Assembly (NCBI GenBank): GCA_964461715.1
Contig: CAYWVR010000002.1
Coordinates: 76,453 to 140,452 of the forward strand
Source: an uncultured Anaerolineales bacterium
GTDB taxonomy: Bacteria > Planctomycetota > Phycisphaerae > FEN-1346
Length of the DNA: 64,000 nucleotides
Reading direction: 5' to 3'
Part shown: positions 15,896 through 48,498 of the stretch, piece by piece
Numbering within the stretch: position 1 is the first letter of the stretch
Layout of the letters: every line of letters starts with the position of its first letter
Program-made: the position numbers and the translations under genes
Notes under the pieces: model-generated
What the model was told of the DNA's origin: nothing
Seen by the model: only the letters and a program-made list of their open reading frames with translations
Database searches by the model: none

Positions 15896-16232
15896 ACATC
15901 ACTTGCGCGAACGTCGCGGGACCCCAGAAGGCCCGCAGCCAGTCGCGCTCTTGGCTCGTGGCACGGCCCAGGAGGCCGCTTTGCTCGATGAAGAGGCGCG
16001 CGAGAGCCCTCGGATCGTCGAAGAGATCGCCCGCCCGTTCGTTCCATTCGGCCACGGCAATGAAGGTGGCCATGTCGGGCGAGGCCTCGTCGACGCCAAG
16101 GACGGCCGCGCCCGCGGTCGTCTCGGCCACCAGATGGTGGGCCTCGCTCAGCTCATCGACGGTGAGGGCCCGGCGGATGGTTGTGCCGCGGGTGTCGGCA
16201 CCGAAGAGGCCGAGGCGCGTCAGGAGGGCCAT
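15867..16232 (-). CDS. FeeM/LuxI-like N-acyltransferase paralogue B: internally deleted mini-copy (~122 aa from MALLTRLGLF…), keeping only the N-terminal and C-terminal blocks
   Basis: MALLTRLGLFGADTRGTTIRRALTVDEL…MATFIAVAEW joins directly to …LFDDPRALARLFIEQSGLL…ERDWLRAFWGPATFAQV. The catalytic GNAT core present in paralogue C is missing. Possible longer starts exist at 16316 or 16472. Confidence 0.4.
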   Translation of the reverse strand: MALLTRLGLFGADTRGTTIRRALTVDELSEAHHLVAETTAGAAVLGVDEASPDMATFIAVAEWNERAGDLFDDPRALARLFIEQSGLLGRATSQERDWLRAFWGPATFAQVMCAAESPPTA

Positions 16233-16473
16233 CCGCCGCTCGACGCCTCCGGCGCGCGGCCGGCGCCGCGCGCGGCGGGACCGGGCGAGGTCCCGCTCCA
16301 GGGCCAGAAGGTCCATCCAGGAGGGTCGGGCGACGGACTGTGGGGGACGGGCCGCGGGAGAAAAGCCGGAGGGCGCCTGCCCTCGCGGGTCGGTCCCCAG
16401 CGGTCCCATCCGAATCCCCACGTCCTGTCCTTTCGGCGGTTGCGAGCGCGGCGGGCGGCGGGCCGAAGGCATC

Positions 16474-27685: not shown

Positions 27686-28549
27686 GTGGGAAACGTCTGG
27701 GACGCGATGAAGAAGCATAACCGGGAGACGCGACCGCCCGCCAACACCCGGGAATCCCCACCAGCCCCGGCGCCGGCCTCGCCCGATCGAGCCCCCGTCG
27801 CCGACGCCCTCGAGACGGCGCCCGAGACCCCGGCTTCCGAGCCGAAAGGGCCGCGACGCCTCGCGACCCGGGCCCAGCTCAACGGCTACGACCGGACGCT
27901 CGTGGCCCACTACGACCGCGGCGGACGCCTGACCGAGGATTACCGCGCCCTGCGCACGAACCTCCTGGCCCAGTACCGTAAGGGCCGGTTCTGCCTCATG
28001 CTCATCAGCTCCGAGGCCGGCGAGGGAAAGACCGTGACGTGCCTGAACCTGGCCCTCGTGATGGCCGAGATGCCCGACCGCCGCACCGTCGTCGTCGACC
28101 TCGACATCCGCAAGGGCCAAGCCTCGCGCATGATGAAGGTGAGTCGGGACCGTGGCGCCGCCGACGTGCTCCGCGGCGAGGCCGCCGTCGCCGACGTCAT
28201 CAAGCCGACGACCTACCCGAACCTGTCGATCGTCCCGGCCGGCCGGGCCAACCGGGCCGAGATCGGCGAGCTCTTCGGCCAGACCGACCTGGACGAGATG
28301 CTGGGCGAGCTGCGGCGCCGGTTCGATTACGTCCTCATCGACACGCCGCCCGTTGCCGGGTTCTCTGACGCCGGCATGATCGGACGGAGCGTCAACGACG
28401 CCCTCGTGGTCGTCCGCATGAACAAGACCCATCGCGAGTCGGTGGACAAGGCCATCCGGCTCCTCCACGCGGCCAACGTCAACCCGGTCGGCGTCGTCCT
28501 GACCCACCAGCGTTACTACATCCCGGACTACCTCTATCGCTACTCGTGA
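27686..28549 (+). CDS. BY-family protein tyrosine kinase (CpsD/Wzc C-terminal ATPase type)
   Basis: GTG start with AGGAGA 5 nt upstream. Walker A SSEAGEGKT, Walker A' VVVDLDIRKG, Walker B …YVLIDTPP, and a C-terminal tyrosine cluster YYIPDYLYRYS. Confidence 0.8.
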   Translation: MGNVWDAMKKHNRETRPPANTRESPPAPAPASPDRAPVADALETAPETPASEPKGPRRLATRAQLNGYDRTLVAHYDRGGRLTEDYRALRTNLLAQYRKGRFCLMLISSEAGEGKTVTCLNLALVMAEMPDRRTVVVDLDIRKGQASRMMKVSRDRGAADVLRGEAAVADVIKPTTYPNLSIVPAGRANRAEIGELFGQTDLDEMLGELRRRFDYVLIDTPPVAGFSDAGMIGRSVNDALVVVRMNKTHRESVDKAIRLLHAANVNPVGVVLTHQRYYIPDYLYRYS

Positions 28550-28577
28550 CGCCCGGGCGCCGCGCCGGGAGAGCCAT

Positions 28578-29645
28578 GTGGGACCCGCAACCGACATGGA
28601 TTGCCGCACCGTCAACGTCAGACCGGCCGCCGAGGCCGATACCGAGGCGTGGGATGCCTTTATCCAGGCCCGGCCGGACGCCACGGTCTTCCACCGCCGC
28701 GCCTGGTCCGACGCCGTCGCCGACGCCTACGGCCACCGGCCGCGCCATCTCGCGGCCTGGTCCGAGCAGCGCCTCGTCGGCCTGCTGCCGCTGATGGAGG
28801 TCCGGAGCCTTTTGGTGGGGCGAGTGCTCGTCTCGGTGCCATACGCGACGTACGGCGGCATCGTGGCCGAGGACGACAACGTCACGGCCGCCCTGGCCGA
28901 GGGGGCCTGCGCCTTGGCCCGCGATCGCGGGACCCGGTACCTGGAGCTTCGACATCGCGAGGCGCGACCGCTGGACCTGCCGACCATCGACCGCTACGAC
29001 ACGTTCCGCAAGGCCCTGCCCGAGCGGGCCGAGGACGTGCTCCCGGGCCTGCCGCGCAAGACGCGCACCGCCGTCCGCCGCAGCCTCAAGGCCCTGGGCG
29101 AGAAGGCCGTCGAGACGGGGCCGCATCTGCTGGACGTCGTCTACGACCTGTACGCGTTCACGATGCGGCGGCTGGGATCGCCGAACTACCGCCGGCGGTT
29201 CTTCCACGCCTTGGCCGACCGCTACGGCGACGACTGCGTCGCGCTGGTCGTGTGGGACGGGGCGACACCCGTGGCGGGCGTGATCAGTTTCATCTTTCGC
29301 GACGAGATCGTGCCGTACTTCTCCGGCAGCCTGCCCGAGGGCCAGGCGACCCGGGCGAACAACCTGATGTACAGTCGACTGATGGAGATCGCGGTCGAGC
29401 GCGGGCTGCGGGCCTTCGACTTTAACCGCACCCGCCGCGATAACCGCGGACCCTACGACTTCAAGCGTCACCACGGTTTCGAGCCGTCGCCGCTGGCGTA
29501 CCACGTGTATCGGACCGACGGCGGCCCGCTTCCGAACCTGAGTCCGAGCAACCGGAAGTTCGCGCTGGCCGCCCGCCTCTGGCAGCGTCTGCCCCTGTGC
29601 GTGACGCGGCCGGCGGGCGCCTGTGTGACAAAGTGGATCCCCTGA
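28578..29645 (+). CDS. FemAB-family (GNAT-fold) protein, PEP-CTERM-locus type
   Basis: Size and colinearity with FemAB-like acyl/aminoacyl-transferases (…VFHRRAWSDAVADAYGHRP…LLPLMEV…GGI…; second lobe …LYAFTMRRLGSPNYRRRFFHALADRYGD…). Confidence 0.6.
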   Translation: MGPATDMDCRTVNVRPAAEADTEAWDAFIQARPDATVFHRRAWSDAVADAYGHRPRHLAAWSEQRLVGLLPLMEVRSLLVGRVLVSVPYATYGGIVAEDDNVTAALAEGACALARDRGTRYLELRHREARPLDLPTIDRYDTFRKALPERAEDVLPGLPRKTRTAVRRSLKALGEKAVETGPHLLDVVYDLYAFTMRRLGSPNYRRRFFHALADRYGDDCVALVVWDGATPVAGVISFIFRDEIVPYFSGSLPEGQATRANNLMYSRLMEIAVERGLRAFDFNRTRRDNRGPYDFKRHHGFEPSPLAYHVYRTDGGPLPNLSPSNRKFALAARLWQRLPLCVTRPAGACVTKWIP

Positions 29646-29675
29646 CGGGGACGGACCTGCAAACGGAGGGACCCT

Positions 29676-29752
29676 AGGCGGGTAGCTCAGTTGGCAGAGC
29701 GCCCGGAATACACCCGGGAGGTCGCGTGGTTCGAATCCCGCCCCGCCTACCA
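29676..29752 (+). tRNA. tRNA-like gene, anticodon TAC (Val) with encoded CCA; non-canonical features (A32/A33 in the anticodon loop, 1-nt bulge in the T-stem)
   Basis: Hand fold: acceptor AGGCGGG/CCCGCCT (7/7 pairs); D-arm GCTC-AGTTGGCA-GAGC; anticodon stem CCCGG/CCGGG with loop AATACAC; variable loop AGGTC; T-arm GCG(T)GG-TTCGAAT-CCCGC; discriminator A then CCA. The canonical GGTTCGAATCC and TAGCTCAGTTGG boxes are present. Confidence 0.6.
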
Positions 29753-29780
29753 GTCTGGACGCCTCGAGTGGACGGCCCGC

Positions 29781-31028
29781 ATGAAACGGCTGCTCTATAT
29801 CGCCCATCGCGTGCCCTACCCGCCGGACAAGGGGGAGCGCGTCCGCGCCTACCATGAGATCCGCGCCCTCGCCGAGGCGTTCCACGTCACCTTGGCCGCC
29901 CTCGCTCACACCCGGGCCGACGAAACCGCCGCGCGCGAGCTGACGCCTTGGTGCGAGGAGATCCTCGTCGAACGCGCCGGCGGGCTCCGGGGGCTGGTGC
30001 GGGGGGCCTGGAGCCTCCTGACGGGCGGGTCCGTGACGACCGGGTACTTCCGCAGCCGCCGCCTCGCACGCCGTCTTCGCGAGGCCGAGGCGTTCGACGT
30101 CGCCGTGGGCTACGCCTCCAGCGTCCTGCCCTACCTCCTGGCGGCCCCGGCCGCGTCGCGGGTCATGGACCTCGTCGACACCGACAGCGCCAAGTGGGCA
30201 AGCTACGCCCGTTGCGACCGCTGGCCGAAACGGGTCCTCTACCGGGCGGAGGCGCGCGGCGTACGCGCTCTGGAGCGGCGCGCGCTCGAGACGTGCGACG
30301 CCGTGCTCCTGGCGAGCGAGGCCGAGGTCGCCGCCCTCGGCATGTCCGATCCGAAGCTCCGCGCCGTCGCCAACGGCGTCGACACCGAGTACTTCACGCC
30401 GCCCGAGGCGGAGGCCGACGGCCCGCCGTCCCTCGTCTTCACGGGATCGATGGACTACCGGCCGAACGTCGAGGCGGTGACCTGGTTCGCAAAGGAGGCC
30501 TGGCCGGCGCTCCGCGAGGCCGTGCCCGAGCTGCGGTTCGTCATCGTCGGGCGCGACCCGGCCCCCGCCGTCCGCCGGCTCGCGGAGACGCTCGGCATCA
30601 CGGTCACCGGTTCGGTGCCGGACGTGCGGCCCTATCTGGCGTCGGCGACGGCGGTCGTGGCGCCGCTGGGCATCGCGCGAGGCGTCCAGAACAAGGTCCT
30701 GGAGGCGATGGCCATGGGGCGGGCCGTCGTCGCCTCGTCGGGCGCCCTGGAGGGACTGGACGTCGCCGTCGGGGAGGAGGCCCTCCGAGCGGACACGCCG
30801 CCCGAGTGGCGTGTGGCGATCACGGGCCTCTTGGACGATGCCGCGCGGCGCCGCGCCCTGGGCGCGGCCGCCCGGGGGCGGGTCGAATCCGACTCCAGCT
30901 GGCCGGCGCGGATGGCGCCGCTGGTGGACCTTTGCCGCCGTCTCGCCGCCCAAGAGGCCACGGCCGAGGCCGCCGATGCGTCCCCGCGCCCCCTCACGCC
31001 GCCCGTCCACGGGAGGGCCGACGCCTGA
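29781..31028 (+). CDS. GT4-family glycosyltransferase, PEP-CTERM/EpsH-associated sugar transferase (stp1-like)
   Basis: N-terminus MKRLLYIAHRVPYPPDKGERVRAYHEIRALAE matches the conserved stp-family start. C-terminal GT1 motifs are …FTGSMDYRPNVEAV… and …APLGIARGVQNKVLEAMAMGRAVV. The track ORF starts at a TTG inside the tRNA; the real start is taken as Met31. Confidence 0.75.
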   Translation: MKRLLYIAHRVPYPPDKGERVRAYHEIRALAEAFHVTLAALAHTRADETAARELTPWCEEILVERAGGLRGLVRGAWSLLTGGSVTTGYFRSRRLARRLREAEAFDVAVGYASSVLPYLLAAPAASRVMDLVDTDSAKWASYARCDRWPKRVLYRAEARGVRALERRALETCDAVLLASEAEVAALGMSDPKLRAVANGVDTEYFTPPEAEADGPPSLVFTGSMDYRPNVEAVTWFAKEAWPALREAVPELRFVIVGRDPAPAVRRLAETLGITVTGSVPDVRPYLASATAVVAPLGIARGVQNKVLEAMAMGRAVVASSGALEGLDVAVGEEALRADTPPEWRVAITGLLDDAARRRALGAAARGRVESDSSWPARMAPLVDLCRRLAAQEATAEAADASPRPLTPPVHGRADA

Positions 31029-31029
31029 C

Positions 31030-31425
31030 ATGGAATCCTGGTTCCGCAACATGGATTCGCCGCCCATGCACTTCGCCGTGGGCATGGTGTGCGGCGGGGC
31101 GCTCTGGATGCTGGTCGTCCTGATTCGGCCGCGGTGGTGGGTCTACACGCCGATTGCCATGACCCTGGGCGGGCTCTGGGCCGAGGGCCCGGACCTCCCC
31201 CTGCTGTTCCACTACTACCCGAGCCTCTCGCCCGACTGGGTCCGCGGCAACGGCTGGTCCGAGGCCCTGCACGGCAAGTGGGCTAATCTCTTCTTCTTTC
31301 ACGGATGGATCGACACCTCCGGCGAGGGGAGCATGGTCCGGGGATGGGCGCTGACGATTGCGCTCTACGGGGGATGGTGCGCCGTCTTCATGGTCCGCGA
31401 GTGGCTCAGGCGGAGGACCGGGTAA
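31030..31425 (+). CDS. small Trp-rich integral membrane protein (131 aa), unknown function
   Basis: ATG is 1 nt after the upstream stop. There are 3-4 predicted TM helices (…HFAVGMVCGGALWMLVVLI…, …GWALTIALYGGWCAVFMV…). It is wedged between two glycosyltransferase genes. Confidence 0.45.
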   Translation: MESWFRNMDSPPMHFAVGMVCGGALWMLVVLIRPRWWVYTPIAMTLGGLWAEGPDLPLLFHYYPSLSPDWVRGNGWSEALHGKWANLFFFHGWIDTSGEGSMVRGWALTIALYGGWCAVFMVREWLRRRTG

Positions 31426-31429
31426 GGCG

Positions 31430-33103
31430 ATGATCGAAGGCCGGACCATCCTGTGCTTTGCGAGCGGCTACGACGCCCCGCCCACAAGCAAGCACCACGT
31501 CATGCGCCGTCTGGCGGAGCGGAACGTCGTTCTCTGGGTCAACTACCACGCGTCGCGGGTCCCCTCGGCCGGCGCGTCGGACGCCGCCTACATCGTCGCC
31601 AAGCTCGGACAGGTGGCCGGGGGCCTTCGCCGGGCGCATCCGAACCTCTACGTCCTGACCCCCCTGGTCGTCCCTTTGCCCACCTCGCGCTTGGCGAGAG
31701 AGACGAATCGGATACTGCTGGTCATGCAGGTGCGGGCGGCGCTGGCGCGGGTCCGACAGGGGCCGCTCCAGGTCTGGTCCTTCGCCCCGGACGTTGCCTA
31801 TGCTCTGGACGCCTTCGACGCCGAGGCCGTCGTCTACTACTGTGTCGACGACTTCGCGTCGTTCTCCGGCTACGACCGCGGGCAGGTCCTGGCCGACGAG
31901 GAGACTCTCTGCCGCCGCGCCGACCTCGTCGTCACCACCAGCCGCGCGCTCCAGGACGCCAAGGCGCCGCTGAATCCGAACACGATCCTCGTGCCGCACG
32001 GCGTGGACTACGCTCACTTCGCGCGCGCAATCGAGAAGGACCTGCCGGTTCCCGAGGACCTGGCGGACATCCCGCACCCGGTCCTGGGATTCTTCGGGCT
32101 CATCCGCGACTGGGTGGACCTGGACCTCGTGGCCGAGGTGGCGCGGCGGCGGCCCGCGTGGCACGTCGTCCTGGTCGGCGATTCGACGGTGGATCTCACC
32201 CCGTACCGGGACTTGCCGAACCTGCATTTCGTCGGCCGCAAGCCCTACGAAGACCTCCCCGCCTGGTGCCGCCGCTTCGACGTCGGCCTTATCCCGTTCA
32301 AGATCAACGACCTGACGGAGGCCGTGAACCCGATCAAGCTTCGGGAGTACCTGGCAGCGGGTCTGCCCGTGCTTTCGACGCCGCTGCCGGAGGTCGTGGC
32401 CTGCGGCTTCCCGGTGCGCGTCGTCGAGGGCCCGGACGGCTTCGTGGGGGCGTGCGAGGCCGCGCTGGCCGAAGGCGCCGGCATCGAAGCCCGCCGATCT
32501 CGCTCGGCCCCCATGGCCGAGGAGACGTGGGACCGCAAGGTCGACCGGATCGCCGACCGCCTGATCGCCGCCGCGTCCGATCAGCCCGCGAGAGGGGCCG
32601 CGACACGGCGGCGCCGCGTCATGGTCGGCGTCGCGGGCGGGGGATTCGTCATCCAGTGCAAGAATCTCCTCCGCGCCTGCCCCGAGACGGTCGAGCTCCT
32701 CGTGACGGGTCCCGAGCACGCCGTGGCCCAGTACGACGCGTGGCGAGACCGATGGCTCTCGGACGACGGGTCGTGGTTCGCCACGCGCCAGCTCCGGAGC
32801 CACGGACGTCTCCAGTCCGCACTGGCGGCGGCCCTGGGGTCGTTACGGTGTCTGGAGCTGGTGTACGAGCACCGCCCGGACGCGGTCGTGGCAGTCGGGC
32901 ATCGCATCGCCGTCTTCCTGCTGGCAGCCGGACGGCTTCTCGGGACCCGGACGGCTTTCGTCGAGTGCATCACGCGGGTTCGGCGCCCGTCGCGGACCGG
33001 CCGGATCGTCTCGGGCCTCGGGCTGGCGGATCGTGTTTTCGTCCAGTGGCCACAGACCCGTCGCCTCTACCGGAGGGCCGTCTACGGCGGCCGCATCCTA
33101 TGA
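31430..33103 (+). CDS. GT4-family glycosyltransferase fused to a C-terminal Alg14-like (EpsE/Cps14F-type) membrane-anchoring domain
   Basis: An AAGG SD precedes the ATG. The N-terminal ~370 aa has the GT1 C-lobe (…VLGFFGLIRDWVDLDLV…HVVLVGD…FDVGLIPFKINDLTEAVNPIKLREYLAAGLPVLST…). The C-terminal ~170 aa (…VMVGVAGGGFVIQCKNLL…LLVTGPEH…PDAVVAVGHRIAVFLLAAGRLLG…FVECITRV…) is Alg14-like. Confidence 0.65.
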   Translation: MIEGRTILCFASGYDAPPTSKHHVMRRLAERNVVLWVNYHASRVPSAGASDAAYIVAKLGQVAGGLRRAHPNLYVLTPLVVPLPTSRLARETNRILLVMQVRAALARVRQGPLQVWSFAPDVAYALDAFDAEAVVYYCVDDFASFSGYDRGQVLADEETLCRRADLVVTTSRALQDAKAPLNPNTILVPHGVDYAHFARAIEKDLPVPEDLADIPHPVLGFFGLIRDWVDLDLVAEVARRRPAWHVVLVGDSTVDLTPYRDLPNLHFVGRKPYEDLPAWCRRFDVGLIPFKINDLTEAVNPIKLREYLAAGLPVLSTPLPEVVACGFPVRVVEGPDGFVGACEAALAEGAGIEARRSRSAPMAEETWDRKVDRIADRLIAAASDQPARGAATRRRRVMVGVAGGGFVIQCKNLLRACPETVELLVTGPEHAVAQYDAWRDRWLSDDGSWFATRQLRSHGRLQSALAAALGSLRCLELVYEHRPDAVVAVGHRIAVFLLAAGRLLGTRTAFVECITRVRRPSRTGRIVSGLGLADRVFVQWPQTRRLYRRAVYGGRIL

Positions 33104-33552
33104 TCCTCGTGACCGTGGGCACGACCTATTACGACGAGCTGGTGCGTGAGGTCGACCGGCTGGTGGTCGTCGGGGCCATCACCGAGCCGGTCTTCGCCCA
33201 GATCGGCATGGGGAAGTACGAGCCGCAGCACATGGAATGGACTCGCTACGTTGACCGTCTCGAGCCGCTCTATCGGGAGGCGAGCCTCGTCATCTGCCAC
33301 GGCGGCGTAGGGACGGTGTTCGAGCTGTTGGCGCTGGGGCGGCCGACGATCGCCGTCGCCAACCGGGCCCTCGCGGACGATCACCAGGCCGACCTGCTCC
33401 GCGCCATTGCCGGGCGAGGCTGGTGCACGTGCTGCTTCTCGCCGACCGAGCTCGAAGCGGCGCTCAAGACGCCCCGCCCGGCGATTCCCTATCCGGACGA
33501 GCCGGTCCTGGCAGGCCGCATCTGGGACTATCTGACCACCCCGAGGACGTGA
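33100..33552 (+). CDS. Alg13-like (EpsF/Cps14G-type, Glyco_tran_28_C) glycosyltransferase catalytic partner
   Basis: ATGA start/stop overlap with the upstream fusion gene. The sequence MILVTVGTTYYDELVREVDRL…ASLVICHGGVGTVFELLALGRPTIAVAN… is the Alg13/MurG-C-like fold. It lies immediately after the Alg14-like domain, as in Cps14F/G pairs. Confidence 0.7.
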   Translation: MILVTVGTTYYDELVREVDRLVVVGAITEPVFAQIGMGKYEPQHMEWTRYVDRLEPLYREASLVICHGGVGTVFELLALGRPTIAVANRALADDHQADLLRAIAGRGWCTCCFSPTELEAALKTPRPAIPYPDEPVLAGRIWDYLTTPRT

Positions 33553-33554
33553 CC

Positions 33555-35033
33555 ATGGACCTTCGGATGCACAAGGTGCCGGACTGGCCGAAGCTCGCCT
33601 GGGTCGCGCGCATGCGTCCCGGCGGCGCGGCCGTCGAGGCACTCCACGGCCCGTACGTGGAGCGCCGCCGGGACTGGTGCGTCGAGGCCGTGTGGGCGGG
33701 ACGCTTCGAGGAGGGCGACTTCGACCGGACGGACCTCGTCTTCGGAACGGGCGTTCGCCTCCGCGACGGCGTCGTCCGGTTCGTCAATGCGGGCACGGGG
33801 GTGGACCGCCTGTGGCACGTGGCCCACGAGGGCGGGTACGCTGTCAGCAACTCGCTGCCCGCGCTGCTGGCGGTGACGGGCCTGGCCCTCCGCGAGGACT
33901 ATACGGGCTACTCCGACGACATCCAGAGCGTCGAGGTGCGGGGCATCCGGCACTATGTCCGCGAGATTCCCTCGTCCGGGCCGCCCCTCGGCGTCCTTTA
34001 CTTCGACGACCTGGTCTATGACGGACGGACGCTCGTCGCGGCCGAGAAACCGAGCGTCGCCCCGCCCTTCCCGACCTTTGCCGCCTACGAGGCATTTCTC
34101 ATCGAGACGGCCCATGCCCTGGGCGAGAACAGCCGCGCGCGGGACCGCCGGTGGCCGGTGACCGGGATCGTCGGCGTCTCGTCGGGCTACGACTCGCCGG
34201 CCGTCGCCGTTGTCGCGCGGCACGCCGGATGCACGCGGGCGGTCACGATCCACCAGTCGCGGAGTCTCTGGCGGGGTCCGGACTCCGGGGAGCCCGTCGC
34301 GCGAGCCTTGGGGCTCCCGTGCGCCGTCTACGACCACAGCCCGCGGAACTATCGCCTGGAGCACGCCGTGTGGGCGGCCACGGGCCTGGCAGGCGGACTG
34401 AACCTCACGCTTTTCGACTACCCGGAGCCGCTGGCCATGTTCTACAGCGGCAGCTACGGCGACAAGGTCTGGGACCGGCGCCCGCACGACCTCTCGGAGC
34501 CGGTGGGCGACCGCGACCACCTGCTGGGCGAGTTCCGGCTGATCCAGGGGCTCTTCCAGTGCGTCGTCCCCTGGTGGGGCATTCACCGCGCCGGCGAGAT
34601 CAACGCCCTCGGCGCCCGCGAGGAGATGGCCCCGTGGACCCTCGGCAACTCCTACGATCGGCCGGTTGCCCGGCGGTTGGCGGAGGAGGCGGGGATCCCG
34701 CGCAAGGCCTTCGGCATCCGCAAGAAGGACACCTCCTCGAACGTGTCCTTCCTCTGGCCGCGCACGCGCGAGGCGCAGGCCCGCTTCGCGCGGTGGCTCC
34801 GAGACCGGGGCCTGGAGGCGCCGAGCCGGGCGCGCGTGGGCCTCTTCCGGAAGCTCGCCAAGCTCGAGGGGCTCATCTACTACAACCTCCCCGCGAAGCT
34901 GCGCCCCAAGCGGCGCCTCCGGCCGTGGCTGCGCCTGGCAGGGACCCGGCGGCTCTTTCAGTGGGGCAACGAGGAACTGAAGGCCGTCTATGCGGCCGGC
35001 CTGGACGCCTTTCGGCGAGAGGCATCTCCGTGA
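33555..35033 (+). CDS. asparagine-synthetase-like PP-loop (SGGxDS-type) protein lacking the N-terminal glutaminase Cys; paralogue 1
   Basis: 492 aa. …PVTGIVGVSSGYDSPAVAVVARHAG… is a degenerate PP-loop ATP-pyrophosphatase motif placed about 230 aa from the N-terminus, as in AsnB. The N-terminus is MDLRM…, with no Cys2 nucleophile. Confidence 0.5.
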   Translation: MDLRMHKVPDWPKLAWVARMRPGGAAVEALHGPYVERRRDWCVEAVWAGRFEEGDFDRTDLVFGTGVRLRDGVVRFVNAGTGVDRLWHVAHEGGYAVSNSLPALLAVTGLALREDYTGYSDDIQSVEVRGIRHYVREIPSSGPPLGVLYFDDLVYDGRTLVAAEKPSVAPPFPTFAAYEAFLIETAHALGENSRARDRRWPVTGIVGVSSGYDSPAVAVVARHAGCTRAVTIHQSRSLWRGPDSGEPVARALGLPCAVYDHSPRNYRLEHAVWAATGLAGGLNLTLFDYPEPLAMFYSGSYGDKVWDRRPHDLSEPVGDRDHLLGEFRLIQGLFQCVVPWWGIHRAGEINALGAREEMAPWTLGNSYDRPVARRLAEEAGIPRKAFGIRKKDTSSNVSFLWPRTREAQARFARWLRDRGLEAPSRARVGLFRKLAKLEGLIYYNLPAKLRPKRRLRPWLRLAGTRRLFQWGNEELKAVYAAGLDAFRREASP

Positions 35034-36448
35034 CACTTGATGCCGAGCTGATGATCGACCAGTTTATCCTGGGCCGGGACGCCGACGCGATCCCGGACGG
35101 GTGGCCCGTGCGCGCTCACGACGGCCGGCGTCTCGGCCATCACCCTCATCTGCCCGTCGCGGAGATCACCGACGGCGAGGGGACGTTCCTCGGCTGGCTC
35201 CTCGGTTGGGCCGTCGGTCCGGACGGCCGGATGGTGCGGAAGAAAGCCGTCTTCAAACAGGCTTTCGAGGCGGCGGTCGCCGAGCACGGGGGGCGCTTCG
35301 CCGCGGTGCGCTTTGCGCCGTCGGGCCCACGTTTCTACCTGGGTCCGTGCGGAGCGTTGGCGGCGGTGTACTCGCGCGAGCGAGAGGTCGTGGCGTCCTC
35401 GCTCTACATGATTCCGGGGGCGCGCGACGCCGAGACGCGCTTGATGCCCGAGCTGGGTGTGCCGGAGAGCGACCACTTCTACCCCTTCGGCCTCACCCCC
35501 CGCCGGGGGATCGAGCGACTGATCCCGCACCACTACCTCGACCTCGCGACCTGGCAGCCCGTGCGCCACTGGCCCGCCGGCGACATCCCCGAGACGCGGG
35601 ACGTCGACGCGACCGGCGAGGCGATCGGGGCGCTCGTCGAGCGGCAGATCGCGGGCGTCATCAAGGCCGACGGACCGATCTACATGTCGCTGACCGCGGG
35701 CCGGGACTCGCGGCTGATGGCGGCCTGCGCGCGGGACCATGCCGCGCACGTCACCTTCTTCACGATGATCGTACCGAGCGAGGGAGGGCGGCTGGATCGG
35801 CAGGCCGCTCGGAAGCTGGCCCGGCGCTGCGGCCTGGACCACCTCGTTCTGCCGCGCAAGACCCCCACAGAGGCCGACAAGCGCCTTCACATGCAGCGCA
35901 CAGGCGATTGCGTAGGCTCATGGCAAAACCTGGCGACGATGGGGCAACTGCCCGAGCGGCGTCCCGTGCTCCTCGGCATGGCCGGCGAGTTGGGCCGGGG
36001 GTTCCACTGGAGACGCGGTGACACCGAATCGAGCCGGATCACGCCCGCCGATCTCCTCGATCGCCGTGGCTTGCCGCACACGCGCGCCATCCTGGACCGC
36101 GCCGAGGCGTGGCTCGCCGGCGTGCCGGCAACCAACGCCCTGACCATCTGGGGCCTCTACTACCTGGAGCAGTACCTGGGGTGCTGGAGCGGACCGGCTC
36201 AGTACAACCCGCACAACGGGTGTTACCGCCTGTCGCCGTACTGCCATCGCGAGATTCACCAAGCCATGATGAGCCTGCCCCGGGAGTATCGCCTCCGCTG
36301 CCGCCTCGAGGACGACCTCGTCGGTCGGCGGTGGCCGGAGATGCTGACCGTCCCGTTCAACTGGCCGATGGGTCTGGGGCGCTACGTCGCGTTCCTGAAG
36401 CGGCGTGCGGGGAAGCTGGTGGGCAAACTCGGCGCGACCGACGCCTAG
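35030..36448 (+). CDS. asparagine-synthetase-like PP-loop protein; paralogue 2
   Basis: GTG start overlaps the upstream stop (GTGA). …DGPIYMSLTAGRDSRLMAACARDHAA… is a PP-loop-like motif at the equivalent position. The overall architecture parallels paralogue 1, and there is no N-terminal Cys. Confidence 0.5.
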   Translation: MTLDAELMIDQFILGRDADAIPDGWPVRAHDGRRLGHHPHLPVAEITDGEGTFLGWLLGWAVGPDGRMVRKKAVFKQAFEAAVAEHGGRFAAVRFAPSGPRFYLGPCGALAAVYSREREVVASSLYMIPGARDAETRLMPELGVPESDHFYPFGLTPRRGIERLIPHHYLDLATWQPVRHWPAGDIPETRDVDATGEAIGALVERQIAGVIKADGPIYMSLTAGRDSRLMAACARDHAAHVTFFTMIVPSEGGRLDRQAARKLARRCGLDHLVLPRKTPTEADKRLHMQRTGDCVGSWQNLATMGQLPERRPVLLGMAGELGRGFHWRRGDTESSRITPADLLDRRGLPHTRAILDRAEAWLAGVPATNALTIWGLYYLEQYLGCWSGPAQYNPHNGCYRLSPYCHREIHQAMMSLPREYRLRCRLEDDLVGRRWPEMLTVPFNWPMGLGRYVAFLKRRAGKLVGKLGATDA

Positions 36449-36461
36449 ACGGATAGAGACG

Positions 36462-38030
36462 ATGCCGGAACTCGTGGATAAGACGCCAACCGAGGTCCCG
36501 CCCGGGGCCGCGGCCGCCAAGCCCGCCGGGGGCGTGAGCAGCCGGGAGCTGACCCGTTCGGCCGGCCGCGGGGCCCTGTGGCAGTTCGCCGGCGCGGGAT
36601 GGATGACGCTTGTCCAGCTCGGATCAAGCGCGGTTCTGGCACGCGTGCTCTTCCCGGAGGACTTCGGCCTCTTGGGAATGGCCCTTTTGGGCCACGCCCT
36701 GATCCGGCGGCTCGGGACCCTGGGGACGACGGCGGGCCTCATCGCGAAGGTGGACGTGACGGAGGACGACCTCTCGACCGCCTTCTGGACGACGTTCGCC
36801 GTGCAGGGGGCGCTCTTCGGGGTCGCGGTGGCGGCGGCGCCGCTGGCGGCCCTCTTCTTCGACACACCGGAGGTCACGTGGGTGATGCGGGCCGTGGCCT
36901 TGACGTTCGTGCTGACGGCGCTGGGGGCCGTGCCGGGCGCGATCCTGCGGAAAAAGCTTCGTTTCGGGGCCCTGAAGATCATCGAGTGCGGCGGCGCGAT
37001 GCTCCAGGCGGGCCTGGCCATCCTTTTCGCGGTGGTCTACGACATGAACTACTGGGCCTTGGTGGCCGGGATGCTGATCTCGGAGGCGTGCCAGGGGGTG
37101 GCGACGCTCATCCTGGCCCGGTGGCGGCCGAGCCTGAGGTTCCGGCGGGAGAGCTTCCGGTACATGTTCCGCTTCGGCTACAACGAGTTCGGCTCGGAGC
37201 TGGCGGGGTATTTCCACCACAACATCGACTATCTGCTGGTGGGCCGGCTACTGGGGCCGGCGCTGCTGGGCCTCTATGAGTTCGCCTACCGCATACCGCA
37301 CATGATCGTGAACCGGCTGGCGATGCCCGTCGGCCGGGTGCTCTTCCCGTCGCTGGCGAAGATCCAGTCCGACAACGCGAGGCTGGCGAAGGGCTACACG
37401 AAGTGCGCCCAGTACGTCTCGATCGCCGTCTTTCCGCTGATGACGGGGTTGGCGGTGCTGGCGCGGCCGACCGTGCTCGTCCTCTGGGGCGAGAAGTGGG
37501 TAGACGCCATTCTTCCGCTGCAGATCCTGTGCGGCAGCGCCGCGGTGCGGTCGGCCCTTTCAGGAGTCGGCACAATCTTCCTCTGCAAGAACCGCCCGGA
37601 CATCCCCCTCAAGTTCAGCCTGGCGACGCTGGCGTTCACCTTTGCGGCCGTGGCCACCCTGGGTTACTTCTTCGGGATGGTGGGCGTGGCGACAGGCATG
37701 CTGGTATCCCTGGCCCCGTACGTGATCTACCTTGGGCTGGCCTTCCGGATGGTCGATACACCGGTGCGGCAGTTCTTCGCCGCCCTGGGCCCGGTCGTGC
37801 TGTGCGCGGCGGTCTGCGGCCTGGCGGCGTGGGGGACGATGCGCCTGGTGTGCCTCGCGGAAGGGCCGGATTACGTGATTCTGCTGGCCGCGGTGCCGGC
37901 GGGCGCGGCGGCCTACGCGGCCGGCATGCGCCTGCTGTATCCGAAGCTGGTGGCGGACGTGTGGGAGACGGCGCGCGTCGTCCTCGGACGCCGATCGAGC
38001 GAAGCCGTGGCGGAGGAACAAGCGCCGTGA
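36462..38030 (+). CDS. Wzx-type oligosaccharide-lipid flippase (MOP/PST family polysaccharide biosynthesis protein)
   Basis: About 12 predicted TM helices. The conserved PST N-terminal region is …SAGRGALWQFAGAGWMTLVQLGSSAVLARVLFPEDFGLLGMAL… Length 522 aa. Confidence 0.75.
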   Translation: MPELVDKTPTEVPPGAAAAKPAGGVSSRELTRSAGRGALWQFAGAGWMTLVQLGSSAVLARVLFPEDFGLLGMALLGHALIRRLGTLGTTAGLIAKVDVTEDDLSTAFWTTFAVQGALFGVAVAAAPLAALFFDTPEVTWVMRAVALTFVLTALGAVPGAILRKKLRFGALKIIECGGAMLQAGLAILFAVVYDMNYWALVAGMLISEACQGVATLILARWRPSLRFRRESFRYMFRFGYNEFGSELAGYFHHNIDYLLVGRLLGPALLGLYEFAYRIPHMIVNRLAMPVGRVLFPSLAKIQSDNARLAKGYTKCAQYVSIAVFPLMTGLAVLARPTVLVLWGEKWVDAILPLQILCGSAAVRSALSGVGTIFLCKNRPDIPLKFSLATLAFTFAAVATLGYFFGMVGVATGMLVSLAPYVIYLGLAFRMVDTPVRQFFAALGPVVLCAAVCGLAAWGTMRLVCLAEGPDYVILLAAVPAGAAAYAAGMRLLYPKLVADVWETARVVLGRRSSEAVAEEQAP

Positions 38031-38097
38031 TGCGCGCACAGACCACGGTCCCGAGTTTCCCGGCGGCCAAGGACGACCGCGCGCGAGGTGGCCAGGC

Positions 38098-39477
38098 ATG
38101 ACGCCACGCGTCTCATCCCGAGACGACGTCCGACGTCGCCGCCCCAAGGGTGCGCGCCCTCATGTCTGCATGTTCGTCAACAACCCGGGCCTGCGGGACC
38201 CGCGCGTGACGCGTGAGGCCGAGGTCGCGGTCGAGGCGGGATTCGACGTGACGGTCGTCGCCTGCCAGAACCACGACGAGGACGGTCCGACGCGCGTCCT
38301 CCAGCGGGGCGTGGAGTTCCTGCGGCCCAAGGTCGGGTCCAGCCGTCTGGCCGGGGCCTTGAGGCACGTCCTCGGCCTCCGCCGGACGTTCTCCGCATCG
38401 CCGGCCGCGCCCCGCGAGGCGTCTCCGTCCGCAGACGCGTCGGCGACGGCCGCGGAAAAGGCAAGGCCCAGTCTGATGCGTCGCCTGCACGGATGGGGAT
38501 GGGGATGGCGGCGGACGCTGGTCAGCCTCGGCCAACGGATTCGTCTCGGCCTTGCCGTGTCGGCCGACGCCTACCATGCGCACGACTGCGACACCCTTCC
38601 GATCGCGTGGCTCTGCGCGCGCCTGCGCGGGAAACCCTTCATCTACGACTCGCACGAACTCTGGGTCGATTGGAAACGGATGCGCGGGGCCGGCCGATGG
38701 CGCCTCGCACTTTGGAGGGCGCTCGAAGCGACCTTCTGCCGGCAGAGCGCCCTATGCGTGACGGTCAGCGAGGGACTGGCGGAGATTCTGCGGCGCGAAC
38801 TGGGCTTGAGGCGACTGGCCGTGGTCCGGAACTGCGCCCGGCGGCCGCGGGCGCTCCCGACGGACACCCACCTCGCCGGCCGCGCCCAGGTCCGGGCGGA
38901 GCTGGGCCTCGGGCCCGACGCGCCGGTCACGATCTATCAGGGCGGCCTGTGGCCCTACCGGGGACTGGAGACGCTGATCCGTGCCGCGACGCACGTGCCG
39001 AAGGTCTCGGTCCTCATCGTCGGCCCGATCACACCGTACGCGGAGTCGCTCCGCGCCCTGTCGATCGAGCACCGTGCGGCCAACGTCCGCTTCCTGGGCC
39101 ACCAGCCGGAGGAGCGGCGGTCGGCGCTGATGGGCGCGGCCGACCTGGGAGTCGTCCTGATCCAGGACGGAGGGTTGTCGTACCGGCACTCCTTTGCCAA
39201 CAAGAACGGCGAGTACTTCGCGCACGGCCTTCCGGTCCTGGCGTCGGACCTGCCGGAGCATCGTCGGGTGCTGATGCGTGTGGGCGCAGCCCTGCTCGCC
39301 GACCCGGAGTCGGCGTCCGACGTGGCGGCCAAGATACAGGCATTCTTCAGGATGACGAAAGCCCAGCGGCGCGGGCTCGCCGCCCTCGCCCGGTCCTTTG
39401 TGGACCGGGAGCTGAACATGGACGTGCAGTTCCGCCCCGTCCTAGACTTCTATCTGGCCCTCGGGCGGAACCGGTGA
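38098..39477 (+). CDS. GT4-family glycosyltransferase (tandem paralogue 1)
   Basis: GT1 C-lobe motifs (…IYQGGLWPYRGLETLIRA…VLIVGP…FLGHQPEE…ADLGVVLIQD…NKNGEYFAHGLPVLASD…). The N-terminal 175 codons are near-identical to the next gene at DNA level. Confidence 0.8.
   Translation: MTPRVSSRDDVRRRRPKGARPHVCMFVNNPGLRDPRVTREAEVAVEAGFDVTVVACQNHDEDGPTRVLQRGVEFLRPKVGSSRLAGALRHVLGLRRTFSASPAAPREASPSADASATAAEKARPSLMRRLHGWGWGWRRTLVSLGQRIRLGLAVSADAYHAHDCDTLPIAWLCARLRGKPFIYDSHELWVDWKRMRGAGRWRLALWRALEATFCRQSALCVTVSEGLAEILRRELGLRRLAVVRNCARRPRALPTDTHLAGRAQVRAELGLGPDAPVTIYQGGLWPYRGLETLIRAATHVPKVSVLIVGPITPYAESLRALSIEHRAANVRFLGHQPEERRSALMGAADLGVVLIQDGGLSYRHSFANKNGEYFAHGLPVLASDLPEHRRVLMRVGAALLADPESASDVAAKIQAFFRMTKAQRRGLAALARSFVDRELNMDVQFRPVLDFYLALGRNR
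38164..38678. repeat. ~515-bp direct repeat, copy 1 (≥99% identical to 39552-40066)
   Basis: Direct comparison of the two stretches gave only two mismatches (gtgacg/gtaacg and gaact/gagct) over ~515 bp. Flanking sequence on both sides is diverged. Confidence 0.8.
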
Positions 39478-39482
39478 CGGAC

Positions 39483-40856
39483 ATGACCTCGAGTCGCTCA
39501 ACATGCCGCGACACCGTCGTGGAGGCGATCGCCCGCCCCGCGCGCGTGCGCGTCTGCATGTTCGTCAACAACCCGGGCCTGCGGGACCCGCGCGTAACGC
39601 GTGAGGCCGAGGTCGCGGTCGAGGCGGGATTCGACGTGACGGTCGTCGCCTGCCAGAACCACGACGAGGACGGTCCGACGCGCGTCCTCCAGCGGGGCGT
39701 GGAGTTCCTGCGGCCCAAGGTCGGGTCCAGCCGTCTGGCCGGGGCCTTGAGGCACGTCCTCGGCCTCCGCCGGACGTTCTCCGCATCGCCGGCCGCGCCC
39801 CGCGAGGCGTCTCCGTCCGCAGACGCGTCGGCGACGGCCGCGGAAAAGGCAAGGCCCAGTCTGATGCGTCGCCTGCACGGATGGGGATGGGGATGGCGGC
39901 GGACGCTGGTCAGCCTCGGCCAACGGATTCGTCTCGGCCTTGCCGTGTCGGCCGACGCCTACCATGCGCACGACTGCGACACCCTTCCGATCGCGTGGCT
40001 CTGCGCGCGCCTGCGCGGGAAACCCTTCATCTACGACTCGCACGAGCTCTGGGTCGATTGGAAACGCATGGGCGGCGTGGGTCGCGTACCCGTCGCCCTC
40101 TGGGAGATGGCCGAGCGGGCGTTCGTCCGGCAGGCCGCCGCGTGCGTGACGGTCAGCGAGGACATGGCGGCGTTGCTGAAGCGCCGCCATAGCCTCGGCT
40201 GCATGCTCGTCGTCCGGAACTGTCCCCGCCGAGGGACCTCGGAAGCGACCGTGCCGCGCGACGTCGCCCGCCGGGCGTGCGGCATCGAGAACGGCCAGCG
40301 GATCGTCCTCTACCAGGGCGGCCTTTGGGCGAACCGCGGACTCGACGTCCTGGTCGAGAGCGCCCGGCACGTCCCGGAGGTGGACGTTCTGCTCGTGGGG
40401 CGGCTCAATTCGTACGGGGCCGGGCTCCAGCAGATCCGTCGCGACCTGGGCTGCCGCAACGTCCGTTTCCTGGGCCACAGGGACGAGGCCGAGCGCAACG
40501 CCTTGATGGCCGCGGCGGACCTGGGCGTCGTCCTGACGCAGGACCGCTCGCTCTCATATCGGCTGACCCTGTCAAACAAGATCTTCGAGTACTTCGCGAA
40601 CGGGCTGCCCGTGCTGGCGTCGGACCTGCCGCCCCACCGGCGGATTGAGGCGCAGACGGGCGCCTGCCGGCTCACGAATCCGGAGGACGCGGTGATTCTG
40701 GCCGAGGACATCCGCCGCTTCTTCTCGATGGACGAAACCGGTCGGCGCCGGATGGGCGAGCGGGCCCGCCGCGCCGCCCTCGACCAACTCAACATGGAAC
40801 GCCAGATGACCCCGCTCCTCGAACTCTACCGCGGCGTCGCGCGGATCGGGCGATAG
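39483..40856 (+). CDS. GT4-family glycosyltransferase (tandem paralogue 2)
   Basis: Same architecture as the preceding gene. The 3' two-thirds are diverged (…LYQGGLWANRGLDVLVESA…LLVGR…FLGHRDEAE…ADLGVVLTQD…NKIFEYFANGLPVLASD…). Confidence 0.8.
   Translation: MTSSRSTCRDTVVEAIARPARVRVCMFVNNPGLRDPRVTREAEVAVEAGFDVTVVACQNHDEDGPTRVLQRGVEFLRPKVGSSRLAGALRHVLGLRRTFSASPAAPREASPSADASATAAEKARPSLMRRLHGWGWGWRRTLVSLGQRIRLGLAVSADAYHAHDCDTLPIAWLCARLRGKPFIYDSHELWVDWKRMGGVGRVPVALWEMAERAFVRQAAACVTVSEDMAALLKRRHSLGCMLVVRNCPRRGTSEATVPRDVARRACGIENGQRIVLYQGGLWANRGLDVLVESARHVPEVDVLLVGRLNSYGAGLQQIRRDLGCRNVRFLGHRDEAERNALMAAADLGVVLTQDRSLSYRLTLSNKIFEYFANGLPVLASDLPPHRRIEAQTGACRLTNPEDAVILAEDIRRFFSMDETGRRRMGERARRAALDQLNMERQMTPLLELYRGVARIGR
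39552..40066. repeat. ~515-bp direct repeat, copy 2
   Basis: See copy 1; the offset between copies is exactly 1388 bp. Confidence 0.8.
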
Positions 40857-40865
40857 GAGAGCGTC

Positions 40866-41843
40866 GTGCCTGAATCCCGACCGGAAACCTCCCGGCTGAC
40901 CCTCGCCGCGGTTATCCCCGTCTACAACCAGCGGGAGACCGTGTGTGCGGCCATCGACAGCGTCCTGGCTCAGACGCGGCCGGCCGACGAGATCATCGTC
41001 GTCGACGACGGGTCGACGGACGGGTCGGGGGACCTGGTGGCCCGCCAGTACGGCGACCGCGTCCGCCTCATCCGCCAGGAGAACCGCGGCGCGGGCGGAG
41101 CCTTCAACACCGGCATCCGCGCCGGCTCCACCGACCTCATCTCGCTCCTCGGCGCCGACGACGGATGGATGCCCGACCGGCTCGAGAAACAGGTCGCCTT
41201 TATGGAGGCCCATCCCGACTGCATGCTCAGCTTCACGGCCGCCGAGCTTCGCGACGAGATCAACGACCGCGTCCTTCTCGAGAACACCGAGATCGACAAG
41301 GAGCGGTACGTCACCCGGTACTTCTTCCGCGACGAGAACCTTCCCGCCGGCAACGGCGTCATGGTGCGGCGGGAGGTGTTCGAGGAGCTCGGGTACTTCG
41401 ACGAATCGCTCCGCCGGTGCCAGGACACGGACATGTGGCTGCGGATCATGATCCGCTACGGCTTCGAGCACATCCCCGAGCCGCTCGTCTGGGTCCACCG
41501 GGGGCAGCATCGCACGATGACGGACCACTCGAAAGGCTTCCGGTACCACGAGGTGTATTACGCGAAGCACCGGTACACCTTTGGTCGCGGGTGGCGCGGC
41601 CAGGCCATCTGGCGGGCCGGATACGGCGCGGCCCTGCGGTTCCACGCCATCTGGTACTTCCGCCAGAAGAAGGGCGGCCTCGCGATGCGCGAGCTCATGA
41701 AGGCCGTCCTCGTCTGGCCCTTCTTCAACCCGACGTGGGTGGTGCGGGCGGCTTCCGAGTACCTCCTCGGCACCGCCGCCTACGATCATGTCGTCTCCCG
41801 GGTCAAACGGTTCCCCGGACTGCGTCCCGAGGCGAGGGGATAG
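40866..41843 (+). CDS. family-2 glycosyltransferase (soluble GT-A)
   Basis: AAVIPVYNQRETVCAAIDSVLAQTRPADEIIVVDDGSTDGS… plus DXD (LLGADDGW). 325 aa. Confidence 0.8.
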   Translation: MPESRPETSRLTLAAVIPVYNQRETVCAAIDSVLAQTRPADEIIVVDDGSTDGSGDLVARQYGDRVRLIRQENRGAGGAFNTGIRAGSTDLISLLGADDGWMPDRLEKQVAFMEAHPDCMLSFTAAELRDEINDRVLLENTEIDKERYVTRYFFRDENLPAGNGVMVRREVFEELGYFDESLRRCQDTDMWLRIMIRYGFEHIPEPLVWVHRGQHRTMTDHSKGFRYHEVYYAKHRYTFGRGWRGQAIWRAGYGAALRFHAIWYFRQKKGGLAMRELMKAVLVWPFFNPTWVVRAASEYLLGTAAYDHVVSRVKRFPGLRPEARG

Positions 41844-41847
41844 GGCC

Positions 41848-48496: not shown

Positions 48497-48498
48497 TC

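Follow-up and report, generated by a model that had tools for sequence, protein, structure and literature searches.

A tRNA-like gene in an exopolysaccharide operon

We analysed a stretch of 64,000 nt (the window; ~70% G+C) from contig CAYWVR010000002.1 of assembly GCA_964461715.1, an uncultured bacterium of the Phycisphaerae lineage of Planctomycetota, and studied a tRNA-like gene that is located inside its exopolysaccharide (EPS) operon, between the gene of a FemAB-family protein and the glycosyltransferase gene stp1 (Table 1). The FemAB open reading frame (ORF) ends 30 nt before the tRNA and stp1 begins 28 nt after it, and profile searches recovered TIGR03019 on the upstream side and TIGR03087 on the downstream side, which is the gene order that an earlier first-pass annotation, made from the letters alone, had proposed. 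The operon further encodes an export protein, a chain-length determinant, an ATPase, a Tyr kinase, more glycosyltransferases, a MOP flippase, an O-ligase-like protein and an stp2-like glycosyltransferase. A scan of the surroundings of the tRNA detected neither a promoter-like nor a plus-strand terminator-like site. The order FemAB–stp1, with or without the tRNA in between, is seen in nearly all related loci.

ARAGORN called the gene tRNA-Val(tac) on the plus strand at the interval given in Table 1, and Rfam placed it in the tRNA family with a full-length match to RF00005 (positions 1–71, 55.7 bits compared with a gathering score of 29, E = 2.7e-9). The covariance model of its own family, R1, gave 102.7 bits. 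The acceptor stem AGGCGGG/CCCGCCU is paired at 7/7 positions, the CCA end is encoded at 29750–29752, the D-arm GCUC-AGUUGGCA-GAGC is canonical with G18G19 present, and the anticodon stem is CCCGG/CCGGG, so that the clear cloverleaf with canonical D- and T-loops described by the first-pass annotation is borne out. The gene departs from a canonical elongator tRNA in having A33 instead of U33 and in its interrupted T-stem. Both departures had been pointed out before and were read directly here, that is, the loop with A32 and A33, and a T-stem in which GCG-U-GG faces CCCGC and one U stays unpaired. The two differ in reach, however, because A32/A33 is real in the window but is only one of many lineage-specific states of the loop, whereas the bulge marks every member of the family. 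A single-sequence minimum free energy fold of the gene was not significant alone (z = −1.32) and misfolded the D-arm, and the structural case therefore rests on covariation.

Table 1. Positions of the tRNA-like gene, its parts and the genes around it in the window
Feature	Position	Strand	Evidence
Val-type tRNA-like gene, anticodon UAC, encoded CCA; member of a conserved FemAB-linked family	29676..29752	+	ARAGORN, Rfam RF00005, covariance model, covariation
Anticodon loop AAUACAC: A32, A33 (no U33), U34-A35-C36, A37, C38	29707..29713	+	Sequence
T-arm GCG-U-GG / UUCGAAU / CCCGC, 5′ strand 6 nt and 3′ strand 5 nt	29724..29741	+	Sequence
Unpaired (bulged) U of the T-stem, between pairs 51–63 and 52–62; family hallmark	29727	+	Sequence, alignment
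Discriminator A73	29749	+	Alignment; no variation across the family
XrtA/PEP-CTERM-associated member of the FemAB family (Fem-like, tandem GNAT); presumed to use the tRNA	28578..29645	+	TIGR03019, Pfam, AlphaFold2 model, fold matches
stp1 glycosyltransferase, conserved downstream partner	29781..31028	+	TIGR03087, 405 bits (cutoff 317)
Same-strand EPS operon context, ~27 kb	24091..50739	+	NCBIfam scans, ORFs filtered by G+C at third codon positions
Exosortase (EpsH) fused to an EpsI/DUF3485 domain, single ORF of 558 aa	57873..59549	+	Pfam PF09721, 169 bits; PF11984, 100 bits

The tRNA is linked to FemAB in both search directions

In a forward search we scanned 50 genome loci encoding FemAB homologs with ARAGORN, and then with a covariance model built from the first finds. 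In nine of the 50 loci ARAGORN reported a tRNA-like gene a short distance 3′ of FemAB, mostly as ‘tRNA-???’ with a four-base anticodon, and many relatives received the label ‘atac’. The covariance model recovered a family tRNA in 14 of the 50 loci, 17–200 nt downstream of FemAB (one of these 14 loci is partly N-masked, one is cut at a contig end and one carries a loop insert). No other tRNA of any type was found within ~6 kb of FemAB in the 50 genome loci. In the 36 loci without a linked tRNA, FemAB runs straight into stp1 across a gap of mostly 0–120 nt, and in the loci with a tRNA this gap is ~125–150 nt, which corresponds to the tRNA plus ~25 nt on each side. Thus the tRNA behaves as an insert into a conserved gene pair and not as the boundary of a mobile element. 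In the longer FemAB–stp1 gaps of the tRNA-less loci, relaxed ARAGORN settings gave only implausible calls, none of them family-like, and model R1 found nothing at E ≤ 1.

In the reverse direction we scanned metagenomes for the T-arm plus 3′ acceptor sequence and allowed the 5′ T-stem strand to have either 5 or 6 nt. The 6-nt strand returned ~48 tRNA-shaped loci, and each of these is flanked by a FemAB homolog and stp1 if the contig is long enough; the lone exception (L100) is not tRNA-shaped. The 5-nt matches were all ordinary tRNAs (Ile-UAU, Lys-UUU and Val-UAC), often in arrays, with no FemAB or stp1 near. FemAB is the sole gene that is always immediately adjacent to the tRNA, at 2–455 nt upstream and mostly at 17–52 nt. 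Hence the arrangement of a Fem-like gene plus an odd tRNA, which the first-pass annotation had recommended looking for in related exosortase loci, recurs in ~65 independent loci.

The relatives of the window FemAB come from Planctomycetota/Phycisphaerae metagenome-assembled genomes (MAGs). Bulged tRNAs also occur in a clade (the L065 clade) whose FemAB proteins are 36–39% identical to that of the window, and the named homologs of this clade, at 70–75% identity, belong to Thermodesulfobacteriota and Pseudomonadota MAGs; in L065 itself, a 148-aa ORF fills the gap between FemAB and the tRNA. Eight further distant FemAB homologs were sampled and three of them are accompanied by divergent members of the family (L139, L140/L141 and L142/L143), among which candidate division WOR-1 bacterium DG_54_3 (L140/L141) has two bulged tRNA-Val genes in one EPS locus, at 2200–2275 and 5888–5963. 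Outside Planctomycetota a VanZ-like small protein (PF04892) is encoded between FemAB and the glycosyltransferase in L135–L138, and just after the glycosyltransferase in L140.

Altogether the family comprises 66 full copies in 63 loci and two partial copies, with 47 unique sequences, all from MAGs or metagenomes, and CCA is encoded in 38 of the 66 full copies. In a neighbour-joining tree of FemAB the tRNA is found in two coherent clades with a few nested losses, and a third deep clade lacks it. Within the deep clade, L027 (~7150–7180) and L028 (~7120–7150) have no tRNA but contain a hairpin, GGGGCGGGCCUCCGUGCCCGCCUGA, in the FemAB–stp1 gap. This hairpin resembles the two strands of the family acceptor stem connected through a short loop and could be the remnant of a deletion or a minihelix. 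The tRNA is still ~88–90% identical between clades in which FemAB identity is down to ~36%. No integrase or mobile element was found at the tRNA loci, and the same two genes flank the tRNA everywhere.

Selection on the fold and the T-stem bulge

Covariation was examined on 44 unique sequences, in which 99.4% of the bulged-cloverleaf cells are in standard pairs. Double-sided changes are present at seven pairs, with at least one in each of the four helices, for example G-C to A-U at pair 7–66, G-C to A-U at pair 10–25 and changes at four of the five anticodon-stem pairs. A further example is T-stem pair 50–64, which is CG in 29 sequences, UA in 10, GC in four and UG in one. None of 500 shuffled controls reached the observed value on any of five measures, and pairing fell to 42–56% when the 3′ partners were slid along. 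The sole apparent mismatches of the T-stem come from four sequences in which the bulge is shifted by a single nucleotide (GCGG-C-G). An additional T-stem nucleotide, U or C, is present in 59 of 59 aligned family rows and in none of 90 ordinary tRNAs from the same fetched loci, and all 90 of these control tRNAs have a 7-nt anticodon loop with U33. Across the family there is next to no variation in the acceptor stem, A73, the D-arm or the T-loop. On this comparative evidence the bulged cloverleaf is under purifying selection with compensatory changes.

Anticodon loops vary while synthetase identity elements are kept

The length of the anticodon loop is 8 nt in 30 of the 47 unique sequences and 7 nt in 15, and two sequences carry hairpin insertions that expand the loop to 23 and 47 nt. 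The commonest 8-nt loop is AAAUACAC, and the others are AAGUACAC, ACAUACAC, AUAUACAA, AAAUACGC, AAAAACAC, ACAAACAG and GGUUACUG. The 7-nt loops are AAUACAC (window), CAUACAC, AACACAC, UAAACAU, UAUACUU, UUUACUU, UCUACGU, AUUACAC, UAUACAU and CGGAUAA. Both hairpin insertions are on the 5′ side of the loop, 39 nt in L078 (10896–11012) and 16 nt in L011 (6640–6732), and both loops end in (A)AUACAC; these insertions resemble tiny unprocessed introns or extra arms. A U stands just before the anticodon in only six of the 47 sequences. The triplet located 2 nt from the 3′ stem is nevertheless restricted to UAC (40 sequences), AAC (three), CAC (one) and GAU (three), that is, Val-type loops end in NAC plus 2 nt and Ile-type loops in GAU plus AA, and these endings are kept despite the variation of the rest of the loop. 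The Ile-type loop CGGAUAA differs from CUGAUAA, the standard loop of tRNA-Ile, only in having G in place of U33. In this Ile-type sub-lineage (L019, L083 and L097) the whole arm is CGCUC-CGGAUAA-GAGCG, with tandem copies in L019 at 7073–7149 and 7197–7273, and isoleucine may be the transferred residue in these organisms.

Valine identity depends mainly on A35, C36, A73 and a regular acceptor helix, G20 and G45 make minor contributions, and A73 is a determinant for both Val and Ile (PMC9976931). By sequence the family presents the major elements of this set for valyl-tRNA synthetase (ValRS): A35 and A73 are invariant, every Val-type member has C36, pairing of the acceptor stem is complete (100%) and G45 is nearly invariant. 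In the alignment, the positions that are read by the synthetase are fixed, and those that matter only to the ribosome (U33, the length of the loop and a wobble base that fits decoding) are released. The loop of both WOR-1 copies, AUUACAC, is otherwise normal yet their T-stems are bulged, which suggests that the bulge arose first and that decay of the loop came later.

In one relative the odd tRNA can be compared with an ordinary one on the same contig, because L078 also carries a fully canonical tRNA-Val(UAC) at 4112–4185, 6.7 kb from the odd tRNA, with a different acceptor stem (GGGCGCG), the loop CUUACAA and a normal T-stem. Thus the odd tRNA is an extra gene, at least in that genome. Moreover, the acceptor stem of the odd tRNA is the same across phyla and that of the host tRNA-Val is different, which points to inheritance or transfer together with FemAB and not to repeated duplication of host tRNAs. 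A canonical tRNA-Val(UAC) in L112 (7124–7199), which has no FemAB link, has the same acceptor, D- and T-arms minus the bulge and the loop CUUACAA, and a tRNA-Val of this type is likely to be the ancestral form of the family.

The adjacent FemAB-family enzyme

The FemAB ORF has 355 aa and scores 325 bits with TIGR03019, compared with a curated cutoff of 260; its true start is possibly ~6 codons downstream. Its assignment to this PEP-CTERM-associated family agrees with the context, since the window also holds genes for an exosortase and a PEP-CTERM protein as well as accessory genes of the XrtA type, and the EpsH–EpsI/DUF3485 fusion marks the locus as an exosortase system. Pfam matches of the ORF are PF13480 (Acetyltransf_6), PF04339 (FemAB_like) and PF02388 (FemAB). 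A profile of 23 homologs searched against the PDB matched the aminoacyl-tRNA-dependent peptide synthase 9wqy (E = 1e-6), Staphylococcus aureus FmhB and Weissella FemX. An AlphaFold2 model was obtained with a predicted local distance difference test (pLDDT) of 89 and a predicted template modelling score (pTM) of 0.88, and its top 11 Foldseek matches in the PDB were all aminoacyl-tRNA-dependent transferases (Sbb17/Sba18, FemX, FmhB and FemA) with TM scores of 0.60–0.78. The family-invariant residues F295-K296 align with the FK of Sbb17; the key catalytic Lys of this enzyme class is K305 in FemX and K329, preceded by F328, in DhpH-C (PMC12945691). By predicted fold and FK motif, FemAB belongs with the Fem-type aminoacyl-tRNA transferases, and the PEP-CTERM FemAB protein probably uses an aminoacyl-tRNA whose amino acid, judging from the linked tRNAs, is valine or isoleucine.

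In loci of other lineages for which genes had been called, a polysaccharide deacetylase (PF01522 + DUF3473) is encoded directly before FemAB (L137, L138, L142, L143, L145 and L146) or a few genes upstream (L135 and L136). Because of this neighbour, and because the best structural relatives of FemAB act on an amino sugar, an amino sugar would be the most plausible acceptor, although this part of the proposal is speculative.

Proposed function and mechanism

We consider it likely that the gene encodes a dedicated, non-translational aminoacyl-donor tRNA, for valine and sometimes isoleucine, which serves the adjacent Fem-type transferase. This reading is favoured because the linkage to FemAB is strict in both search directions, because the bulged cloverleaf is selected with compensatory changes, because synthetase identity is kept while decoding features are lost, because a canonical tRNA-Val(UAC) coexists on the contig of one relative (L078) and because FemAB, by model and alignment, has the fold and motif of an aminoacyl-tRNA transferase. 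The first-pass annotation had already put forward an isoacceptor dedicated to its Fem-like neighbour, and this suggestion turns out to be the best fit to the comparative tests. Exclusion from EF-Tu by the bulge and the amino-sugar acceptor are parts that we hold with less confidence than the reading as a whole.

The proposed sequence of events is as follows. The tRNA would be transcribed within the EPS operon, excised by the normal tRNA-processing enzymes and supplied with CCA where this is unencoded, as suggested by the tight same-strand spacing, the lack of promoter and terminator signals in the scan, and the intact acceptor stem and D- and T-loops. The housekeeping ValRS would then charge it with valine, or isoleucyl-tRNA synthetase would charge it with isoleucine in the GAUAA sub-lineage, because A35, C36, A73 and the regular acceptor helix are strictly kept in accordance with the identity rules. 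The unpaired pyrimidine lies by pairs 49–65, 50–64 and 51–63, which are read by EF-Tu, and may keep the Val-tRNA off this factor; once selection for decoding was lifted, loss of U33, 8-nt loops and hairpin insertions could follow. Finally, the FemAB-family enzyme would move valine onto an amine of a substrate of the EPS/exosortase pathway and form an amide; the most plausible, if speculative, acceptor would be an amino sugar in a glycan, either lipid-linked or already polymerised. The transferase may, in addition, recognise its tRNA by the bulge. Together with FemAB, the tRNA would constitute one module whose parts are inherited together across phyla and have probably been transferred together. 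An extension of this idea, possible though on balance unlikely, is that the pair is a portable, self-contained module for non-ribosomal aminoacylation, with a naturally orthogonal tRNA that the host ValRS charges and that the bulge conceals from EF-Tu and the ribosome, and that the free α-amine of the valyl or isoleucyl residue, borne on an EPS or lipid-linked glycan, is the long-sought nucleophile that accepts PEP-CTERM proteins from exosortase. This would parallel the sortase of Gram-positive bacteria, which uses the Fem-built, tRNAGly-derived pentaglycine bridge.

Several observations weigh against a dedicated donor tRNA. A linked tRNA is missing at approximately two thirds of the FemAB loci that were sampled (36 of the 50 genome loci and five of the eight distant homologs), and hence the enzyme does not need an adjoining tRNA gene; the tRNA may be an optional refinement, or may be encoded elsewhere in the tRNA-less genomes. 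The minor Val determinant G20 is not conserved in the family, and the 8-nt loops and hairpin inserts might impair binding of the anticodon by ValRS. Moreover, some loops could still decode (AUUACAC in WOR-1 and UUUACUU in the L065 clade), so that exclusion from translation would there depend on the bulge alone. As to the enzyme, acyl-CoA-dependent tandem GNATs share the fold and rank just below the Fem-type matches, and a predicted tandem-GNAT fold by itself would be compatible with an acyl-CoA donor. In addition, expression, charging, behaviour towards EF-Tu, incompetence in translation and use by the transferase are all inferred from genomic sequence.

Alternative explanations

A decaying tRNA or an integration-site remnant was the alternative named in the first-pass annotation, and an assembly error was considered with it. 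A33 and the bulge are the kind of feature for which tRNA finders typically report a pseudogene, and tRNA genes are common integration sites. We find this explanation hardly credible, since the same features recur across ~65 independent loci and in dozens of independent assemblies, compensatory changes occur in all four helices, and the tRNA remains far more similar between clades than the ~36%-identical FemAB proteins next to it. An attachment (att) site relic is also at odds with the identical flanking gene pair and with the unchanged FemAB–stp1 synteny of loci without the tRNA, and no integrase or mobile element is present. Selection on the fold, together with a bulge in 59 of 59 rows, thus excludes a pseudogene, an att relic and an assembly error. 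A tRNA working in translation, either as a minor tRNA-Val or, with its 8-nt loop, as a +1 frameshift suppressor that reads the quadruplet GUAU for recoding, is very improbable as well. The four-base ‘atac’ labels of ARAGORN, the near-normal 7-nt loops with U33 in WOR-1 and L065-clade members and the canonical T- and D-loops would be expected of such a tRNA. However, 41 of the 47 unique sequences have no U before the anticodon and two have loop hairpins of 16 and 39 nt; the wobble base varies between U, C and A, and A34 is not known to be used by bacteria to decode Val; the T-stem bulge occurs in 0/90 ordinary tRNAs, and a canonical tRNA-Val(UAC) is at hand beside the odd one on L078. As for recoding, the loop of the window has 7 nt, which does not suit a quadruplet suppressor, and loop length switches between 7, 8 and >8 nt among close relatives, whereas the FemAB and stp1 ORFs are recovered as single uninterrupted tblastn high-scoring segment pairs. 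Because these ORFs are uninterrupted whatever the loop length, no recoding site is needed.

Two other explanations accept a function outside translation, and to each of them we assign a low probability. The gene could be a tRNA-shaped processing or stability element, that is, a signal for RNase P and RNase Z that splits or stabilises the FemAB/stp1 mRNA with no purposeful aminoacylation. It is embedded in a same-strand operon with spacers of ~30 nt and no promoter or terminator signals, and its intact acceptor stem and T/D elbow are the features that RNase P recognises. Such an element, however, has no need for A35-C36 or GAUAA, and yet these are the sole conserved loop positions in the 47 unique sequences; in addition, A73 and the entire acceptor stem are invariant or covarying, CCA is encoded in more than half of the copies (38/66), the bulge found in all 59 rows has no obvious role in RNase P recognition, and the FemAB–stp1 junction is the same in loci without the tRNA. 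Alternatively, a non-translational tRNA could have another job, either as donor for a different enzyme of the locus or as a sensor of charged and uncharged tRNA that couples EPS synthesis to the supply of valine. Conservation and the identity elements indicate that charging matters and do not indicate who uses the charged tRNA, the loci hold other enzymes of unassigned function, and tRNAs act as regulators in other systems (PMC4052509). Against this, FemAB is the only gene that is always adjacent, it is the sole member of the locus from a family known to use aminoacyl-tRNA, and Rfam found no T-box or similar element in the window. A dedicated donor for FemAB accordingly remains the reading that we favour.

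Comparison with known systems

The closest parallel is provided by the non-proteogenic (NP) tRNAGly isoacceptors of staphylococci (NP1–NP3), which serve FmhB, FemA and FemB. These tRNAs evade EF-Tu via weak T-stem pairs 49–65, 50–64 and 51–63, the preference of FmhB for them depends on determinants in the D- and T-arms, and detection of such tRNAs was stated to be limited to S. aureus and S. epidermidis at the time (PMC7826273). Like them, the members of the new family appear to be extra isoacceptors that keep synthetase identity and are altered in the T-stem region read by EF-Tu, and their user is likewise a Fem-family transferase, which is presumed here from gene linkage. They differ in being of Val/Ile type and not Gly, in occurring in Planctomycetota, WOR-1 and other Gram-negative lineages and not in Firmicutes, and in belonging to an EPS/exosortase locus and not to peptidoglycan synthesis, where the operon itself contains the tRNA gene, immediately behind that of the transferase. 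The structural device is also different: the NP tRNAGly have weak A-U pairs at 49–65 and 51–63, loss of G18G19 and a UGC T-loop, whereas the new family has the bulge with loss of U33 and loop expansion, and it keeps G49-C65, G51-C63, G18G19 (except in L139) and a UUC T-loop. With no sequence relationship between the two, the new family is, as far as comparison of the genes goes, an analogue and not a homologue of the NP tRNAGly.

Compared with the canonical tRNA-Val(UAC) of L112, the new family is alike in the sequence of the acceptor stem, D-arm, variable loop and T-arm, in the anticodon UAC and in A73; the canonical genes of L112 and L078, in contrast, have an unbulged 5-bp T-stem and the loop CUUACAA with U33, and the L112 type is not linked to FemAB. 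Valylatable tRNA-like structures of plant viruses (TLS-Val) keep A35/C36 and function outside translation (PMC9976931). The same positions are kept for ValRS in the new family, presumably also without decoding, but TLS-Val have a pseudoknotted acceptor arm and form the 3′ termini of RNA genomes, and the new family consists of free-standing cloverleaf genes in bacterial operons. On the side of the enzyme, Orf11 of the streptothricin type moves Gly from Gly-tRNA to an amine of the amino-sugar intermediate streptothrisamine (PMC12945691), and Orf11, Sba18 and Sbb17 (PDB 9wqw/9wqy) are the best structure and sequence matches of the window FemAB and catalyse the type of reaction that is proposed here. 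These enzymes draw on the ordinary Gly-tRNAGly pool and yield small antibiotics, not EPS, and the review mentions no dedicated tRNA gene (PMC12945691). We found no dedicated tRNA tied to a PEP-CTERM FemAB or to a non-staphylococcal Fem-like enzyme in full-text literature searches or in the founding PEP-CTERM paper.

Other features of the window

A second ARAGORN call at 37452–37544 (+), a ‘tRNA-???’ with a two-base anticodon, was rejected as a false positive, since it lies inside the MOP flippase ORF (36405–38030) and has no Rfam match. Adjoining the EPS operon, the protein at 20588–21496 (−) has a Peptidase_C39-like domain and a C-terminal PEP-CTERM motif and is likely to be a substrate of the exosortase. 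A cluster that precedes the EPS genes, at 12742–17382, encodes a PaaK-like AMP-ligase, a ThiF/E1-like adenylyltransferase (14166–14999) and a PRK14852-like protein (16474–17382, −). The 774-aa ORF at 48415–50739 (+) gives two separate matches to stp2/GT4 glycosyltransferase models, which suggests that two such enzymes are fused in tandem.

Implications

If the tRNA is a dedicated donor, it would represent an independent invention of translation-excluded Fem-donor tRNAs in unrelated and mostly uncultured Gram-negative lineages, with another amino acid, another pathway and another structural trick, the bulged T-stem, than in staphylococci. The family would then be a natural experiment on the features needed for charging as opposed to decoding, in which NAC and A73 alone survive once the requirement for decoding is lifted, and it would offer a naturally orthogonal tRNA scaffold of possible interest to synthetic biology. 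More generally, ‘pseudo’ or undetermined tRNAs inside biosynthetic operons can mark tRNA-dependent chemistry. For the PEP-CTERM systems themselves, the linked tRNA would be the first concrete clue to the function of the associated FemAB protein, and it would make the chemistry of exosortase-linked EPS testable, with N-valyl sugars as the product to look for.

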